Source: a virus. Taken from it: a stretch of DNA of 64,000 bases. The stretch is taken from IMG/VR virus record IMGVR_UViG_3300035670_000137, positions 12,782 to 76,781 of that record. The stretch is one strand, 5' to 3'. The position numbers and the translations under genes were made by a program. The notes beneath the pieces were generated by a model. It saw nothing but the letters and a program-made list of their open reading frames with translations. It was not told the DNA's origin and did no database searches. Positions 4,792-49,156 of the stretch are shown piece by piece; position 1 is the first letter of the stretch; each line of letters begins with the position of its first letter.

Positions 4792-4835
4792 ACGTACCTC
4801 GCTTTTTTCCGATACGGAATTTCATTTTTCATATA

Positions 4836-4864
4836 TTATAGCACTGCACCTAGACAATGTCAAT
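4836..4864 (-). promoter_or_regulatory. sigma70-type late promoter for tape measure gene
   Basis: Minus strand TTGACA-N17-TATAAT. Confidence 0.8.
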
Positions 4865-4898
4865 GATAAATTTTTTAATGCAAAAAAGCCCACCAATT

Positions 4899-5270
4899 TT
4901 ACTTGGCAGGCTTTTTTGCATTAATTATACTAGAACGAATATTATCGATTATTTGAATTATGGCGAAACAGGTTTTTCTATCTTCTATCTCTGCAATACT
5001 AAATACATCGCTAATACCCGACATTACTTTACCCATATATACGCCATTCATTCCATCCCAATTATCTTGAAGCATATTATACACCATAAGGGCTTCTTGG
5101 ACATCATCGGACAGATCATCGTATTCTACAGGTATTTCTGACTCAACTGGTTCGTTACCCAGAGCAGCACACATTTCGAAATAAGTATCCTTAGTTACCT
5201 TTGCTTCCGCATTAAGGTAAAAGGACTTTATTTGCTCTTGGAGGGCGCTCCACTGGGCTGCTGAAAATTT
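4899..5270 (-). CDS. Tail assembly chaperone, frameshifted C-terminal part (gpT-like)
   Basis: The -1 frame is open from the slippery site at 5264-5270 (FSAAQWSALQEQIKSFY...EMCAALG...) through track ORF 4899-5174; lies between chaperone and tape measure. Confidence 0.85.
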   Translation of the reverse strand, partial: KFSAAQWSALQEQIKSFYLNAEAKVTKDTYFEMCAALGNEPVESEIPVEYDDLSDDVQEALMVYNMLQDNWDGMNGVYMGKVMSGISDVFSIAEIEDRKTCFAIIQIIDNIRSSIINAKKPAK

Positions 5271-12586: not shown

Positions 12587-13774
12587 TTATGGTGCAACCT
12601 TATCTGGCTTTGGAGGGGCACCACCCTCACTAGGATTAGCAGCTGATCCTGCTATATTTGCTGGCACTCTAATATCATCTTGACCCGAAATTGGAGCATA
12701 TCGTAGTTCTTCTCTAGCTTCATTTGGTGTAATAACTCCACCATTTACTAATGTAGCGTGATAGGAGGCGATATCTTTCAGTTCAGGTTGTAGGGACGAG
12801 ACATTAGAGGTCACAACTTCGACATCATATCCAAAGTATCTTTCTATAGCTGACGTAAACTTACGAACTACAGGTAGAACTGTCTCTAGATAGAATAATC
12901 TTAAATTAGGAGAAATATTGGCGTTGTTACCACCGTCGATCAGGACTTCTGGTACACCTAGGGCCATTAGAATCTTAGTATTATGGGTCTTGATAGAGTT
13001 ATCAAAATCCATATCCTTAAAATTAGTATCTCCTATACTCTTTAATTTCATACCGCTATCCAATATCATTGGGCGGCGAGCACCGTTCTTAACTGAGTAT
13101 TTCTGAGTCCATCCTTGAATGGTTCTCTCTTTAGCCATCTGGCTAAGTGTATTTTCAGTCTCTAGAACGATGCCTGCGATAGCTCCGTTGTCAAAGAATT
13201 GATCCTGGAACTGTTGCATCTTATAAAGAGTATTTAATGTTCTGTTAGCGGCGGCTAGTCTACTTGTTCCTCGGTATATCGAGGAGCTTGAGACATCTTT
13301 AATATGTATAATTTCATCAGGTTTAAACTTAGTAATGCCGTTATACTCATAACCCTTTACAAAAGTCTTTTCATCTGGCAGCACAACCATGTGTGCAGCT
13401 GGTAGATGGTAAAGAAAGGCTCCGTCATAGTAAATGAAGATATTACCTTCAATTATCAGATCTGTAAATAGGTGAGTTCTAAACTCTTGTGCAGACTGAT
13501 ACGGGTTAGGTCTAAAATTAAGTAGTGTATTTAGAGACTTTTGTCTAACTCCCTGTACTACACCCTCTGTAGTTTTATCTTTAATATCGTAATCTAAGCT
13601 AGCTGCTCCGGATACGATAAGGTTAACGCCACGACTTACTGTTTCTATTTTTTCGAATGCTTGACTGTACCCGGCTAATGAATCTGTAGCTACGTTGGTA
13701 CCTTCGTTAAACATTATTAATTCTTGTGCTGGATTCGCTTTTTCACGAAACCAGTTCATTGGATTCCAATCCAT
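12587..13774 (-). CDS. Portal protein (HK97-type, T5 pb7-like)
   Basis: RPNPYQS, GNIFIY, EIIHIK, FFDNGA, ITPNEARE portal motifs. Confidence 0.95.
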   Translation of the reverse strand: MDWNPMNWFREKANPAQELIMFNEGTNVATDSLAGYSQAFEKIETVSRGVNLIVSGAASLDYDIKDKTTEGVVQGVRQKSLNTLLNFRPNPYQSAQEFRTHLFTDLIIEGNIFIYYDGAFLYHLPAAHMVVLPDEKTFVKGYEYNGITKFKPDEIIHIKDVSSSSIYRGTSRLAAANRTLNTLYKMQQFQDQFFDNGAIAGIVLETENTLSQMAKERTIQGWTQKYSVKNGARRPMILDSGMKLKSIGDTNFKDMDFDNSIKTHNTKILMALGVPEVLIDGGNNANISPNLRLFYLETVLPVVRKFTSAIERYFGYDVEVVTSNVSSLQPELKDIASYHATLVNGGVITPNEAREELRYAPISGQDDIRVPANIAGSAANPSEGGAPPKPDKVAP

Positions 13775-36169: not shown

Positions 36170-36280
36170 TCTTGCTATAATATTATTTCTGAAGTGCGGA
36201 AGGCAATATGAATGAGATACTTCGTTAGGCATTCCAAATTTCAGACTTGATTTTGTTAATCGAAGCCTGTATAATATTCA

Positions 36281-37686
36281 TATACACTGAGGAAAGCGAA
36301 TAGCGCTTAACGACGGTTAAGCTACTCGGGCGCAAACGGCGGGTGACGCGTCCTGATATAATCAGACCTCCGCTACGGACAGTTAGCTGCTGACTCCCAA
36401 ATTGGTCACTTAGTGTATAACTTAGTAGTGTGGACTAGTGCGAAGCAGGTATGAAGTGAGGCTCAGGCGGAACGGAGTCTGTGAACCGGAGTGAAGCATA
36501 CTAAGATAGCTTTATTAGGGAGCTTAATATCCTAGTACGGTGGTAGTAGTCGGAACTACTCCAACGCTTGAAGGTAAGTGCTTGCAGAACTGGTGTGACA
36601 ATCGGTCAATATTCTGCATAAACCTTCATTAGTTAGTACGATAAGCCTGTTGGGGTATTCAGAATATCCCGTTCAAAAGGTTCAAATCCTGGTTAAGCAT
36701 GGCGTGCTGAACAGGGCAAGATAAACTAACTAATATAAACCTACTGATGATCTGAGGTGGTAACTCAGTGAAACGGCAGACAATCTAGCGAATAGTCGCG
36801 AACTACTCAATATAGTTCCCTACATAGCGGTCTGTCCGTATAGGTAAACCAAGAAGTGTGGATAACTGCCATGCCACTAGCGAGGAAGTCAACGCTCCTC
36901 AATATATGACAACGATAGTACGTTGCATTGACCCAAGGGTTAGGGGCTATAGTTCAAAATGGCCTGTCTTACTTAACCCGATCCCTATCGGCATATGTTG
37001 CAGAATAATATAGAACCTTGGTAAAACGGGTTGTGCTATCCGGCCTATAGAAATAAGAGGATAGCATTGGTGAGTACTATAAGTTCGCAAATGTTCCTAT
37101 AGTAAAGGACGATTGGAAATCGACCACCTGGTCATAAGAGCCGAGACCTTATAAATAGGCAGTTTCCGTGGCTTGAAGCGGATTAGAGTGGGTATTGAGA
37201 GTACAGACACTATAAACAAGCAACTCTCTAGTGGTGCAACCCACTATTGAAAAACTAATAGTGCAACATTACGGAATTTAAGCACTTTAATCCTAGAAAT
37301 TCCTAGGCCATGCCACAAGCCGAATATAACTGTAGATTGCTTGAGTCACCCGTACTCAGACACACACGGTAGGATACTGTCGACGTCCCGTAGAGAAGAG
37401 TTTTAAACTAGTAGTGTTTCTGCTTCTATCTGACTACGAAAAACGGTAAATCAGTTTCAGATAACGTGTAACTCCGTATGAAACGTCTATTAGATGCCTT
37501 TGTACTTTGAGCATTAATCAAATGTTGACTAGCCTGACGCTGGCTACGAGTCCCGTAAGGACAGTACGTAGTGATGGGATCCTGACCAAGTCACTAAAAT
37601 CTTGTGGTAAGGGGCAAAGGCTGGATATTCGTATCCGGCCTTTGTTTTCTCTAGGTATTATTAGTTTAGTACCTAGAGAAAACAAA
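36281..37686 (+). ncRNA. ~1.4 kb tract of structured RNAs without credible ORFs
   Basis: Follows promoter at 36248; series of stem-closed domains; includes a hammerhead. Confidence 0.6.
36739..36845 (+). ncRNA. Hammerhead ribozyme (type I)
   Basis: Stem I ACCUA/UAGGU, core CUGAUGA, stem II CUGAG/CUCAG, GAAA, stem III ACGG-CAGAC/GUCUG-u-CCGU, cleavage triplet GUA. Confidence 0.8.
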
Positions 37687-37697
37687 GGAGAGCCTAA

Positions 37698-37919
37698 ATG
37701 ATTGAATGCATGAACGCTAAAGAATATATTACTTTCGACCCTAAATTGCAAGAACACCTCCAGGCTTACTACACTCTCCACTATCGTGGAAAGCAGAGTA
37801 ATCTGAGATTTCGCTTGGAGAAACCCTTTACTAACGTAGTTGCTATGATGCAGCATAAGATCTGCGAAATGCAACTGCAGCAATCCATTAAAGGATTTGC
37901 ACTCGACCTGAGGTATTAA
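37698..37919 (+). CDS. Hypothetical protein
   Basis: AGGAG RBS; ORF. Confidence 0.65.
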   Translation: MIECMNAKEYITFDPKLQEHLQAYYTLHYRGKQSNLRFRLEKPFTNVVAMMQHKICEMQLQQSIKGFALDLRY

Positions 37920-41106: not shown

Positions 41107-42660
41107 ATGACAAAACTAAATCCAAAAACACAAAACACTATTGAACACGCTATCTCGGCCAATGGCAATCTTCAGATTGCTAAAGATCAGGGACAGACGT
41201 TCTTTGAGACCCTTGTCGGACATATGTACGGCAAGGATCGTTTCTACACTAGCAATGAAGATGTTGCAAAGCGTTTGCTTTCCGATATCCAAGTCCTCGT
41301 TCGTAAGAATAAGTTGGACTATATTGCTAATGTAATTCTGTATGCTCGTGAAAAGGTTTTCATGCGGTCGATGCCTATTCTAGCTACAGTTTACTTTGCT
41401 AAGGCATTGCGCGATTCCAAAGTATCCTTTCCACAACTTCGTAATCTAGTTTCTTCGGTCATTCAACGAGCTGACCAGGTAACTGATATGTACGCTGTTG
41501 CCTTAGAGGTCTTTGGAGATAAGCGTAAAGTGCCCAATGCCATCAAGCGCGGTGTATCGGACGCCATGAATAAGTTTACCGTATATCACTACGGTAAATA
41601 TAACCGTGAAGCCGGTGTCACATTCAAAGATGTGGTGCGTATCGTACATCCAGAACCTCGCGATGACAACCAAAGTCAGACTTTCAAGATGATTCTTGAA
41701 AACAATCTGCCCGTGCCATATACGTGGGAAACTGAACTCTCCCGCAACGGTCAACTTCCGAAAGAAGTTCAAAAGACTAAGGCTCAGCTATGGGCCGAGC
41801 TCGTACAATCCGGCAAACTCGGATATATGGCATTACTTCGTAACCTTCGTAACATAGTTCAGTCAGGGGCTGACGTTATCGGTGAGGTGGCGAAACGGCT
41901 AGTCGATGCAGAACAAGTTCACATTTCTAAGCAGCTTCCCTTCTCCTACCTAAAGGCTCTAGACGCCGTTAAGGACGCCCCCGCAAAGCTGAAGTGGGCA
42001 GTAAGTGAGGCTCTTGATGTATCCTGTGCTAACGTACCTGCACTAGGAAAGAAAGTGTGGATCATTGTCGATGGTTCCGGCTCTATGTTGGGTTCCCATT
42101 ATGGACGCATGGGACGCAATGAGGCGCTAGGTGAGTGTCCTTTCCAGACCGCGGCTGTATTTTGTGCAGCCCTGGCTAAATCAAATCGTGATGCTAGTGA
42201 ACTAGCAGTTACCATCTTTAGCGACAACGCTCAGATGGTTGATCTGAACCCTCGTGATTCAGTATCCACAATGGTGGAGAACCTCACGAAGAAAGTTCAA
42301 GGTGGTGGAACTAATCTACAGGCAGCCTTGAATATGAAGTCACGGTTAGGTTTTGAGCCAGACACAGTTGTAATCCTCTCAGATATGGAAGTTAACCAAC
42401 TGTCAACTGGATCGTATGGTGGAGGCTATTCTTGGAATAGACAAGACAATACGATTGCAAACATCAGCAAGATGTTTGACAAGAACTGCTATAAAGTAGC
42501 AGTAAACCTAGCTAGCGGCGTTTCAACGCCGGTTCCAAAAGAGCATGGCTTTGTCCAACTAGCAGGGTTTAGCGAGCGAATCTTCGCCCTAATCCCAGAA
42601 TTGCGAAATAGTCGGACTACGGTTGAAACACTGTTCAGTCGACCATTTGCAGCAGTTTAA
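41107..42660 (+). CDS. Ro60/Rsr-family TROVE-domain RNA-binding protein with vWA domain
   Basis: DRFY, YARE..FMRSMP, QRAD, D..R..HP.P, PYTWET.LS, GYMALLRNLRN, LPF, VDGSGSM (MIDAS), GGGTN, ILSD. Confidence 0.93.
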   Translation: MTKLNPKTQNTIEHAISANGNLQIAKDQGQTFFETLVGHMYGKDRFYTSNEDVAKRLLSDIQVLVRKNKLDYIANVILYAREKVFMRSMPILATVYFAKALRDSKVSFPQLRNLVSSVIQRADQVTDMYAVALEVFGDKRKVPNAIKRGVSDAMNKFTVYHYGKYNREAGVTFKDVVRIVHPEPRDDNQSQTFKMILENNLPVPYTWETELSRNGQLPKEVQKTKAQLWAELVQSGKLGYMALLRNLRNIVQSGADVIGEVAKRLVDAEQVHISKQLPFSYLKALDAVKDAPAKLKWAVSEALDVSCANVPALGKKVWIIVDGSGSMLGSHYGRMGRNEALGECPFQTAAVFCAALAKSNRDASELAVTIFSDNAQMVDLNPRDSVSTMVENLTKKVQGGGTNLQAALNMKSRLGFEPDTVVILSDMEVNQLSTGSYGGGYSWNRQDNTIANISKMFDKNCYKVAVNLASGVSTPVPKEHGFVQLAGFSERIFALIPELRNSRTTVETLFSRPFAAV

Positions 42661-48847: not shown

Positions 48848-48849
48848 TA

Positions 48850-49156
48850 TTCGTTGATGGCAAAGTAAAAGTATTCAAGACGGGAGGGGCAGTGCCTCCC
48901 CTGGTCCACCAATAAGTAGCTATAAGAGTGACACAGTAGGGTATTAGCAGACGTCCTAGTACCTCTGGAGTAATCATAAACTTAGCTACTTATTAATGGG
49001 CCAGTAATAGATTCGATTGGGTATGAATAGCAATGCTGGAGAATCGTCAAGAAAGACGTAAAAATCACAATAATAAATGCAAACGATTCTACGTTCGCTC
49101 TAGCCGCTTGAGCTAGATAAGGTTTCGGGACTGTCCCTTATTACCAATACAGTCCC
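48850..49156 (+). ncRNA. ssrA: Permuted (two-piece) tmRNA; tag ANDSTFALAA
   Basis: Acceptor piece ends CTGGTCC-ACCA (48911); hairpin intervening segment; coding piece starts GGGCCAG (48998) giving G3:U70; tag GCAAACGATTCTACGTTCGCTCTAGCCGCTTGA at 49079-49111. Confidence 0.92.

Follow-up and report, generated by a model that had tools for sequence, protein, structure and literature searches.

A type I hammerhead ribozyme of a widespread phage subfamily within a conserved non-coding unit of a T5-like phage

Type I hammerhead ribozymes have been described from intergenic DNA of phages and prophages, where their proposed role is the cutting of polycistronic phage messages into units (Perreault et al. 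2011, PMC3088659); what hammerheads do biologically in prokaryotes and phages has been called an open question (de la Pena et al. 2017, PMC6155905). Stem II of natural hammerheads can begin with a U10.1-U11.1 mispair, which is the best tolerated of the mispairs and retains activity (PMC3088659). We analyzed a candidate hammerhead at 36739-36845 in a 64,000-nucleotide stretch of viral DNA (referred to below as the window; positions 12,782 to 76,781 of IMG/VR record IMGVR_UViG_3300035670_000137), where it had been proposed in an initial annotation made without database searches. All coordinates are window positions unless a contig is named. The window is part of a 76.8-kb record of a tailed phage (73% complete), assembled from a subsurface metagenome, and our literature search found no paper combining hammerheads with T5-like phages. 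Comparison with related sequences indicates that the element is almost certainly a type I hammerhead ribozyme by homology, and not a chance motif.

The element lies on the + strand and comprises three helices around a complete catalytic core. Stem I is formed by ACCUA (36739-36743), preceded by the family-typical UAA at 36736-38, and UAGGU (36841-36845), followed by the family-typical AAAC tail; it has five base pairs (bp) and an open end, whereas stems II and III are closed, which is the type I topology. The first core segment, CUGAUGA (C3-A9; 36744-36750), leads into stem-loop II (36751-36769), in which a U36751.U36769 mismatch replaces the canonical G10.1-C11.1 pair and is followed by 5 bp (CUGAG 36752-56 with CUCAG 36764-68) and the loop GUGGUAA. 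The second core segment, GAAA (G12, A13, A14 and A15.1; 36770-36773), overlaps the 5' strand of stem III (ACGGCAGAC; 36773-36781), which pairs with the 3' strand GUCUG-U-CCGU at 36830-36839 (last base U16.1) through A36773-U36839, C-G, G-C and G-C, then, past a bulged U36835, through five further pairs to C36781-G36830. The element therefore has the core residues C3 U4 G5 A6 N7 G8 A9 and G12 A13 A14, as well as the A15.1-U16.1 pair followed by an H17 that is not G. From the hammerhead consensus (a GUA triplet, with H17 = A), the scissile bond is predicted between A17 (36840) and U1.1 (36841), in agreement with the position given in the initial annotation. Stem III is capped by a branched insert of 48 nucleotides (nt) at 36782-36829, with helices P3a (36785-87/36825-27), P3b (36788-91/36796-99) and P3c (36800-05/36813-18) that are predicted to fold as a small three-way junction; the earlier label of a large structured insert of about 48 nt in loop III is a fair one. 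The minimum-energy fold computed with RNAfold is the hammerhead three-way junction both for the 116-nt element and within 421 nt of context, and the CUGAUGA/GAAA/GUA core, the three helices and the non-canonical 10.1-11.1 pair of the initial annotation are all present where they had been drawn.

We evaluated how often such a motif would be expected by chance using a generic hammerhead descriptor, which requires CUGAUGA, GAAA and U-H together with three stems of 4 bp or more, one mismatch being tolerated at the base of stem II. With both strands of the 76.8-kb contig scanned, the descriptor matches once, whereas 0.007 matches are expected in each first-order Markov shuffle. This ratio is insufficient for a scan of very many windows, and the decisive support is therefore comparative.

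The orthologous group consists of four lineages: the window; a 112-kb viral contig from the source study (L004, which carries what we call variant A); the contigs L008 and L010; and variant B, found in a sequencing run (X4) of a freshwater metagenome from a different study. The flanking genes are syntenic at 72-80% DNA identity among the window, L004 and L008, indicating separate phages and not strain copies. In L004, 33 nt stand in place of 36626-36769 and supply one strand of stem I, the CUGAUGA core segment and a stem II of different sequence (GCUAG/CUAGC); from there on the contig is identical to the window through GAAA, both stem III strands and stem I, with 11 substitutions and two insertions that all fall inside the stem III insert. 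The L008/L010 lineage has its own 7-bp stem II (GUCCAGU/ACUGGAC). Among the variants listed for X4, beyond which other changes are possible, the sole core change is at 36748 (N7, the only free position of the core), U36751 is changed to G and U36769 to C to give a canonical 10.1-11.1 pair, and a deletion of A36755 is compensated at 36764 and 36765, such that stem II still pairs. The four lineages thus carry four different stem II sequences, each of them pairing.

When the window is aligned with L004 and L008, neither CUGAUGA nor GAAA varies among the three, and the core is under purifying selection; only three of the 19 stem-loop II columns are invariant, yet pairing is kept, with double changes in four of the six pairs. 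Over the whole alignment 90.7% of cells are paired, compared with 23-38% when the partner strands are slid against each other. Two P3c pairs are changed on both sides (window GAACUA/UAGUUC, L004 and L008 GGAGAGG/CCAAUCC), and two unpaired parts of the insert, AAU and CCCUACA, are invariant among the orthologues. Fast cleavage of type I hammerheads at low Mg2+ requires a tertiary contact of stem I with loop II, by loop-loop interaction or pseudoknot. A 4-bp complementarity exists between loop II (U36758-GGU) and the 3' tail (A36848-CCA), which L008 also has and which in L004 is UGA/UCA, a compensating change; by our estimate a match of this kind arises by chance about one time in ten. We regard this UGGU/ACCA pseudoknot as possible but do not adopt it, because the match is short and the AAAC tail is conserved in the family whatever the sequence of loop II.

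Further searches define how far this group extends. A pattern of the core plus the stem III strand has 13 matches in metagenome contigs, of which 11 (L005-7, L009 and L011-17) are chance matches without a stem II, mostly in coding DNA, leaving only L008 and L010 as homologues; the pattern also recovers L004 from the viral contigs. The window's own exact stem II, used as a pattern, has no match in viral contigs; stem II is lineage-specific. Protein scans with the flanking phosphoesterases return only relatives at 39-41% identity, without the ribozyme, and scans anchored on the first block of the non-coding unit (described below) and on the stem III insert return no further orthologues. A blastn search of the 1.3-kb gap around the ribozyme against 50,697 phage records gives no match.

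A more distant orthologue is identified by position. Covariance model R1, made from the sequences of the window, L004 and L008, gives a weak match in contig L033, in a slot equal to the window's, between a gene 65% identical to the upstream phosphoesterase and a 50%-identical metallophosphoesterase. Its stem I is CGUCU/AGACG, its stem II GCUAG/CUAGC, and its stem III is bulged likewise but of other sequence, with a GUC cleavage site; all three helices are rewritten yet paired, and an insert hairpin GAACUA/UAGUUC sits where the window has P3c. The core of this element reads CCGAAGA (a U4C change). This 50%-related phage has two hammerheads. The one at 1026-1085 of the contig is a compact textbook type I element with a CUGACGA core and a GUC site, and the U4C element, at 4812-4943, starts a few bases past a consensus promoter and 45-60 nt before the metallophosphoesterase start, a position that would make it a leader ribozyme able to strip the 5' triphosphate end from the metallophosphoesterase messenger RNA.

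The stem II common to L004 and L033, flanked by GA and GAAAC, was then used as a search pattern in viral contigs, and the resulting 45 contigs include about 35 with complete type I hammerheads. They share a UAA before a 5-bp stem I, a GCUAG-UGARAYU-CUAGC stem-loop II, GAAAC and an A-rich tail, and two of them (L126 and L110) carry the window's own stem I (ACCUA/UAGGU, then AAAC). Short stem III hairpins are found in 19 distinct members; at least six unrelated lineages have unrelated inserts of 41-77 nt that fold as extensions of stem III. The large insert of the window element, pointed out in the initial annotation, is one of these independent long inserts in the same subfamily and is not a new feature. 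When the 19 compact members are aligned, 99.2% of cells are paired (18-34% when slid), all five stem I pairs covary, the first core segment is invariant except at N7, GAAA is invariant as it is in the orthologues, and position 17 is A or C.

We built a second covariance model (R2) from 19 phage contigs, with the window, L004 and L008 left out. R2 matches the window at 36735-36850 over its full length (27.4 bits, E = 8.9e-6), aligning stem I, the core, stem II, GAAAC and CCGUA-UAGGU as they had been drawn and skipping a 57-nt insertion in stem III. On this alignment the window element belongs to a widespread phage subfamily.

A typical member of the subfamily lies between two open reading frames (ORFs) of the same strand, 0-30 nt from both. 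In about half of the members (L098-L141, viral contigs) the upstream ORF terminates at the UAA that precedes stem I, and the start of the following ORF often lies 5-30 nt past the ribozyme. Only a few members are near transfer RNAs (tRNAs), and we rejected tRNA association as a general trait of the subfamily; the candidates in L115 and L062 have non-consensus cores and weak stems and were rejected as spurious. One hammerhead with a 38-nt stem III insert (L091, 10478-10594 of the contig, - strand) comes right after an apparent tRNA 3' end (...GGGGUACCA); ARAGORN calls no tRNA there, because the locus ends at that point.

The transcriptional setting of the window element is different. The ribozyme sits in a gap (36170-37506) that contains no ORF of 50 or more amino acids except one 51-residue GTG frame, and the neighboring ORFs are 565 nt away on the upstream side and 656 nt away on the downstream side, unlike the intercistronic position of the rest of the subfamily; the difference is one of context and not of fold. 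A sigma-70-type promoter (TTGATT-17-TATAAT; 36247-36275, + strand) matches the consensus at 10 of 12 positions, and its hexamers are conserved in place in L004 and L008; transcription would start near 36282. An intrinsic terminator on the same strand at about 37613-37650 (AAAGGCUGGAUA / UAUCCGGCCUUU, then GUUUUCU) was read from the sequence, a simple terminator scanner having missed it, and has an equivalent in L004 and L008. Between these signals lies a conserved, multi-domain non-coding unit of about 1.37 kb (36282-37650, + strand). It is kept in synteny in L004 and L008 and can be aligned among them, although the lengths of its indels are not multiples of three, and the ribozyme has several conserved structured blocks to either side. 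Just 3' of the predicted cut, a structured RNA (36846-37050, + strand) has hairpins that covary in the three lineages (GUGG/CCAC to GUAA/UUAC, and GAGGA/UCCUC to GGAGA/UCUCC to GGGGU/ACUCC). That the hammerhead falls within one ORF-free non-coding unit, bounded by a shared promoter and a terminator, makes processing of a polycistronic non-coding RNA, as had been suggested initially, the natural reading of the locus.

Combining these features suggests the following course of events. The promoter at 36247-36275 would transcribe the ribozyme within the 1.37-kb non-coding RNA, the element would fold into its three-way junction, and internal transesterification would take place between A36840 and U36841. 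The 5' product (about 560 nt) would then end in the complete ribozyme, including the 48-nt domain on stem III, as a compact 3' structure bearing a 2',3'-cyclic phosphate, and the 3' product (about 810 nt) would begin with a 5'-OH at U36841, where the next conserved structured RNA begins. Because the ribozyme is of type I, all of it would stay on the upstream product, and the downstream RNA would keep only the 5-nt strand of stem I. The cut would thus part upstream from downstream non-coding modules and leave both with ends unlike the normal triphosphate and 3'-OH. Such ends, which the initial annotation also expected, follow from hammerhead chemistry; its further link to RNA-healing enzymes is unsupported by gene content, as the families PF01139 (RtcB), PF09414 (ATP-dependent RNA ligase) and PF13563 (2H/LigT) were not found in the window's record, which is 73% complete, and RtcB (PF01139) was not found in a complete 112-kb relative, in which the other two families were not searched. 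The complete relative has exactly one hammerhead of this family, at this locus, and, with one hammerhead per genome there and in the window's contig, formation of circular RNA by paired ribozymes is unlikely.

We consider it likely that the element is a functional type I hammerhead that actively cleaves itself in vivo; cleavage, its rate and the use of the new ends are inferred. Several observations weigh against this assignment. No RNA run was found to hold the window sequence. Stem I is only 5 bp long; stems I and III are invariant among the close orthologues, so that evidence of covariation in them comes from L033 and the wider family; and X4 may differ from the window beyond the variants listed. 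The U.U at the most conserved pair of stem II is derived in the window lineage, and loop II reads GUGGUAA where the family has UGARAYU, the sequence that presumably makes the tertiary contact; activity at physiological Mg2+ could drop as a consequence. Finally, Rfam gives no ribozyme family over the whole window at gathering thresholds or, in a permissive search (E<=10), over 36300-37300. The compact members also score below the Rfam 15 gathering thresholds, however (L126 reaches 23.2 bits against a threshold of 56.3 for RAGATH-1, RF03152, and 16.4 against 52 for HH9, RF02275); since Rfam misses compact textbook members too, its silence on the window weighs little.

These points bear most directly on the reading of the element as a crippled relic, descended from an intercistronic or leader hammerhead but, owing to its U.U mismatch, altered loop II and short stem I, no longer cleaving at a useful rate, and retained for a structural role within the non-coding RNA (such as that of a stable three-way junction, or of a binding platform formed by the stem III domain). 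The relatives have G-C where the window has its derived U.U, loop II differs from that of the family, the U4C change in the positional orthologue of L033 suggests that this slot tolerates a weakened ribozyme, and the invariant unpaired parts of the insert (AAU and CCCUACA) hint at a non-catalytic role. Even so, the 11 canonical core positions, the A15.1-U16.1 pair and H17 are intact in four lineages despite repeated rewriting of stem II, and an intact core beside a rewritten stem II is the pattern expected under selection for catalysis. The mismatch is also less damaging than it may appear: among mispairs U.U best preserves activity, and natural hammerheads with it exist (PMC3088659). Although private to the window lineage (G-C in L004, L008 and X4), the U-U first pair is a published natural variant and not a new feature. 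We regard loss of useful activity as unlikely on balance, and continue to favor an active ribozyme.

A refinement of the active ribozyme, more than an exclusive rival to it, is that cleavage is conditional, with a protein, ligand or RNA that binds the stem III domain or the neighboring modules stabilizing or disrupting stem III and thereby regulating cleavage, and release of the downstream RNA, in the course of infection. The insert is conserved and branched and has invariant unpaired nucleotides, and the RNA-rich arm that contains the ribozyme also encodes a Ro60/TROVE protein, a transfer-messenger RNA (tmRNA) and 24 tRNAs. That other lineages carry inserts of 41-77 nt here, unrelated in sequence, nevertheless fits a mere tolerance of stem III for insertion, the insert matches no known aptamer or RNA family in Rfam (36300-37300), and nothing ties it to any partner; we judge such regulation very improbable. 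Chance resemblance, in which a hammerhead-like core arose by coincidence within some other structured RNA, could appeal to the weak energy z-score of the isolated element (-1.41), to the lack of an Rfam match and to the fact that a motif expected at 0.007 per genome will turn up somewhere in a very large scan, but is effectively refuted already by the compensatory changes with conservation in four lineages, the covariation in the family alignment, the positional orthologue in L033 with all of its stems rewritten, and the match to the independently built model R2.

How the ribozyme came to lie in a non-coding unit is suggested by comparison with L033, whose slot of about 185 nt holds only a promoter, the ribozyme and a leader: the non-coding modules may have accreted around a pre-existing leader or intercistronic ribozyme. 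A wider scenario, possible but doubtful in our estimation, is that in this T5-like clade a lone hammerhead was recruited from between protein genes to mature a multi-module non-coding RNA operon. The slot would have grown to 1.4-1.7 kb as RNA modules accreted on both sides, with the ribozyme as the cutter that gives the downstream RNA its 5'-OH and the upstream RNA a protective or functional 3' cap (the 2',3'-cyclic phosphate), and it might feed the Ro60/Y-RNA-like and tmRNA machinery of the phage.

Conservation within the non-coding RNA is highest in its first block (36283-36400), where the three phages share about 86-90% identity against 72-80% in their genes; this block is an unclassified structured RNA with no Rfam match over 36300-37300. 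Two insertions are private to the window relative to L004 and L008. The first, of about 116 nt, lies at approximately 36420-36535, and variant contigs of runs X1 and X3 skip 36404-36559. The second is a 111-nt, stem-closed module (UUAGUUAGU / ACUAACUAA) at 36626-36736, just upstream of the ribozyme and between direct repeats (ATAAACCT), which is covered by X4 contigs and by a low-depth X1 contig. It contains a T-arm-like AGG-UUCAAAU-CCU as well as a hairpin resembling an anticodon arm, and has the look of a tRNA-like RNA module that is mobile or was recombined. Downstream of the predicted cut, at 36882-36932, the loop sequence GUCAA (36888-92) of a covarying hairpin is complementary to UUGAC (36928-32), a complementarity kept in L004 and present in L008 as CAAC/GUUG, which makes a pseudoknot possible. 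A long hairpin right after the terminator (37639-37700; GUUUUCUCUAGGUA ... UACCUAGAGAAAAC) ends at an AAGGAG ribosome-binding site that serves a 73-amino-acid ORF starting at 37698, with the same layout in L004 and L008.

The phage record has the hallmark genes of terminase, portal, a head protease/major capsid fusion and a major tail protein, and the portal shares about 42% identity with the portals of T5-like phages of Vibrio and Pectobacterium. The RNA-rich + strand arm spans 30.8 to 50.9 kb and holds the 24 tRNA genes; it also contains the Ro60/TROVE-vWA protein (41107-42660) and a permuted tmRNA (48849-49111; 98 bits), and encodes HNH endonucleases and two calcineurin-like phosphoesterases. 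The two phosphoesterases that flank the ribozyme gap are generic members of the calcineurin-like group, one of them PdeM-like at 22 bits (cut-off 150) and the other like PDB entry 1xm7.

Compared with the known type I hammerheads of phages and prophages (PMC3088659, PMC6155905), the window element has the same core, three-helix topology and open stem I, and is likewise of phage origin and intergenic. Most members of its subfamily lie between two same-strand ORFs, often with the UAA as stop codon, as has been described (PMC3088659). What sets the window clade apart from typical phage hammerheads is a single copy inside a 1.37-kb non-coding transcript, not flanking a small gene, and a branched stem III domain of 48 nt. 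With natural U10.1-U11.1 hammerheads (PMC3088659) it shares the U.U that opens stem II in place of the near-universal G-C, and there is no difference in kind. RAGATH-1 (RF03152) and Hammerhead_HH9 (RF02275) are the best Rfam models for the subfamily member L126, a likeness that consists of the type I core and an A-rich 5' flank; RAGATH-1 is defined by an upstream hairpin joined to a type I hammerhead (threshold 56.3 bits), and the window, without a match at E<=10, is not a member by Rfam. The HDV-like (hepatitis delta virus-like) theta ribozymes (Kienbeck et al. 2024, PMC10879173) are likewise small and self-cleaving, occur in non-coding and tRNA regions of phages and have a proposed role in RNA processing; they are of a different fold and class and are described as adjoining viral tRNAs, whereas the window hammerhead adjoins no canonical tRNA.

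These findings leave the known chemistry and architecture of hammerheads unchanged. As a by-product, one pattern scan yielded about 35 complete examples of a phage subfamily that falls below Rfam 15 thresholds, and a dedicated covariance model would improve annotation. What distinguishes the window ribozyme is that it sits within a non-coding operon conserved among these phages: a single hammerhead, at a fixed place in a conserved non-coding transcript and with structured RNAs flanking the predicted cut, offers a simpler system for the study of function than do ribozyme arrays between anonymous small genes.

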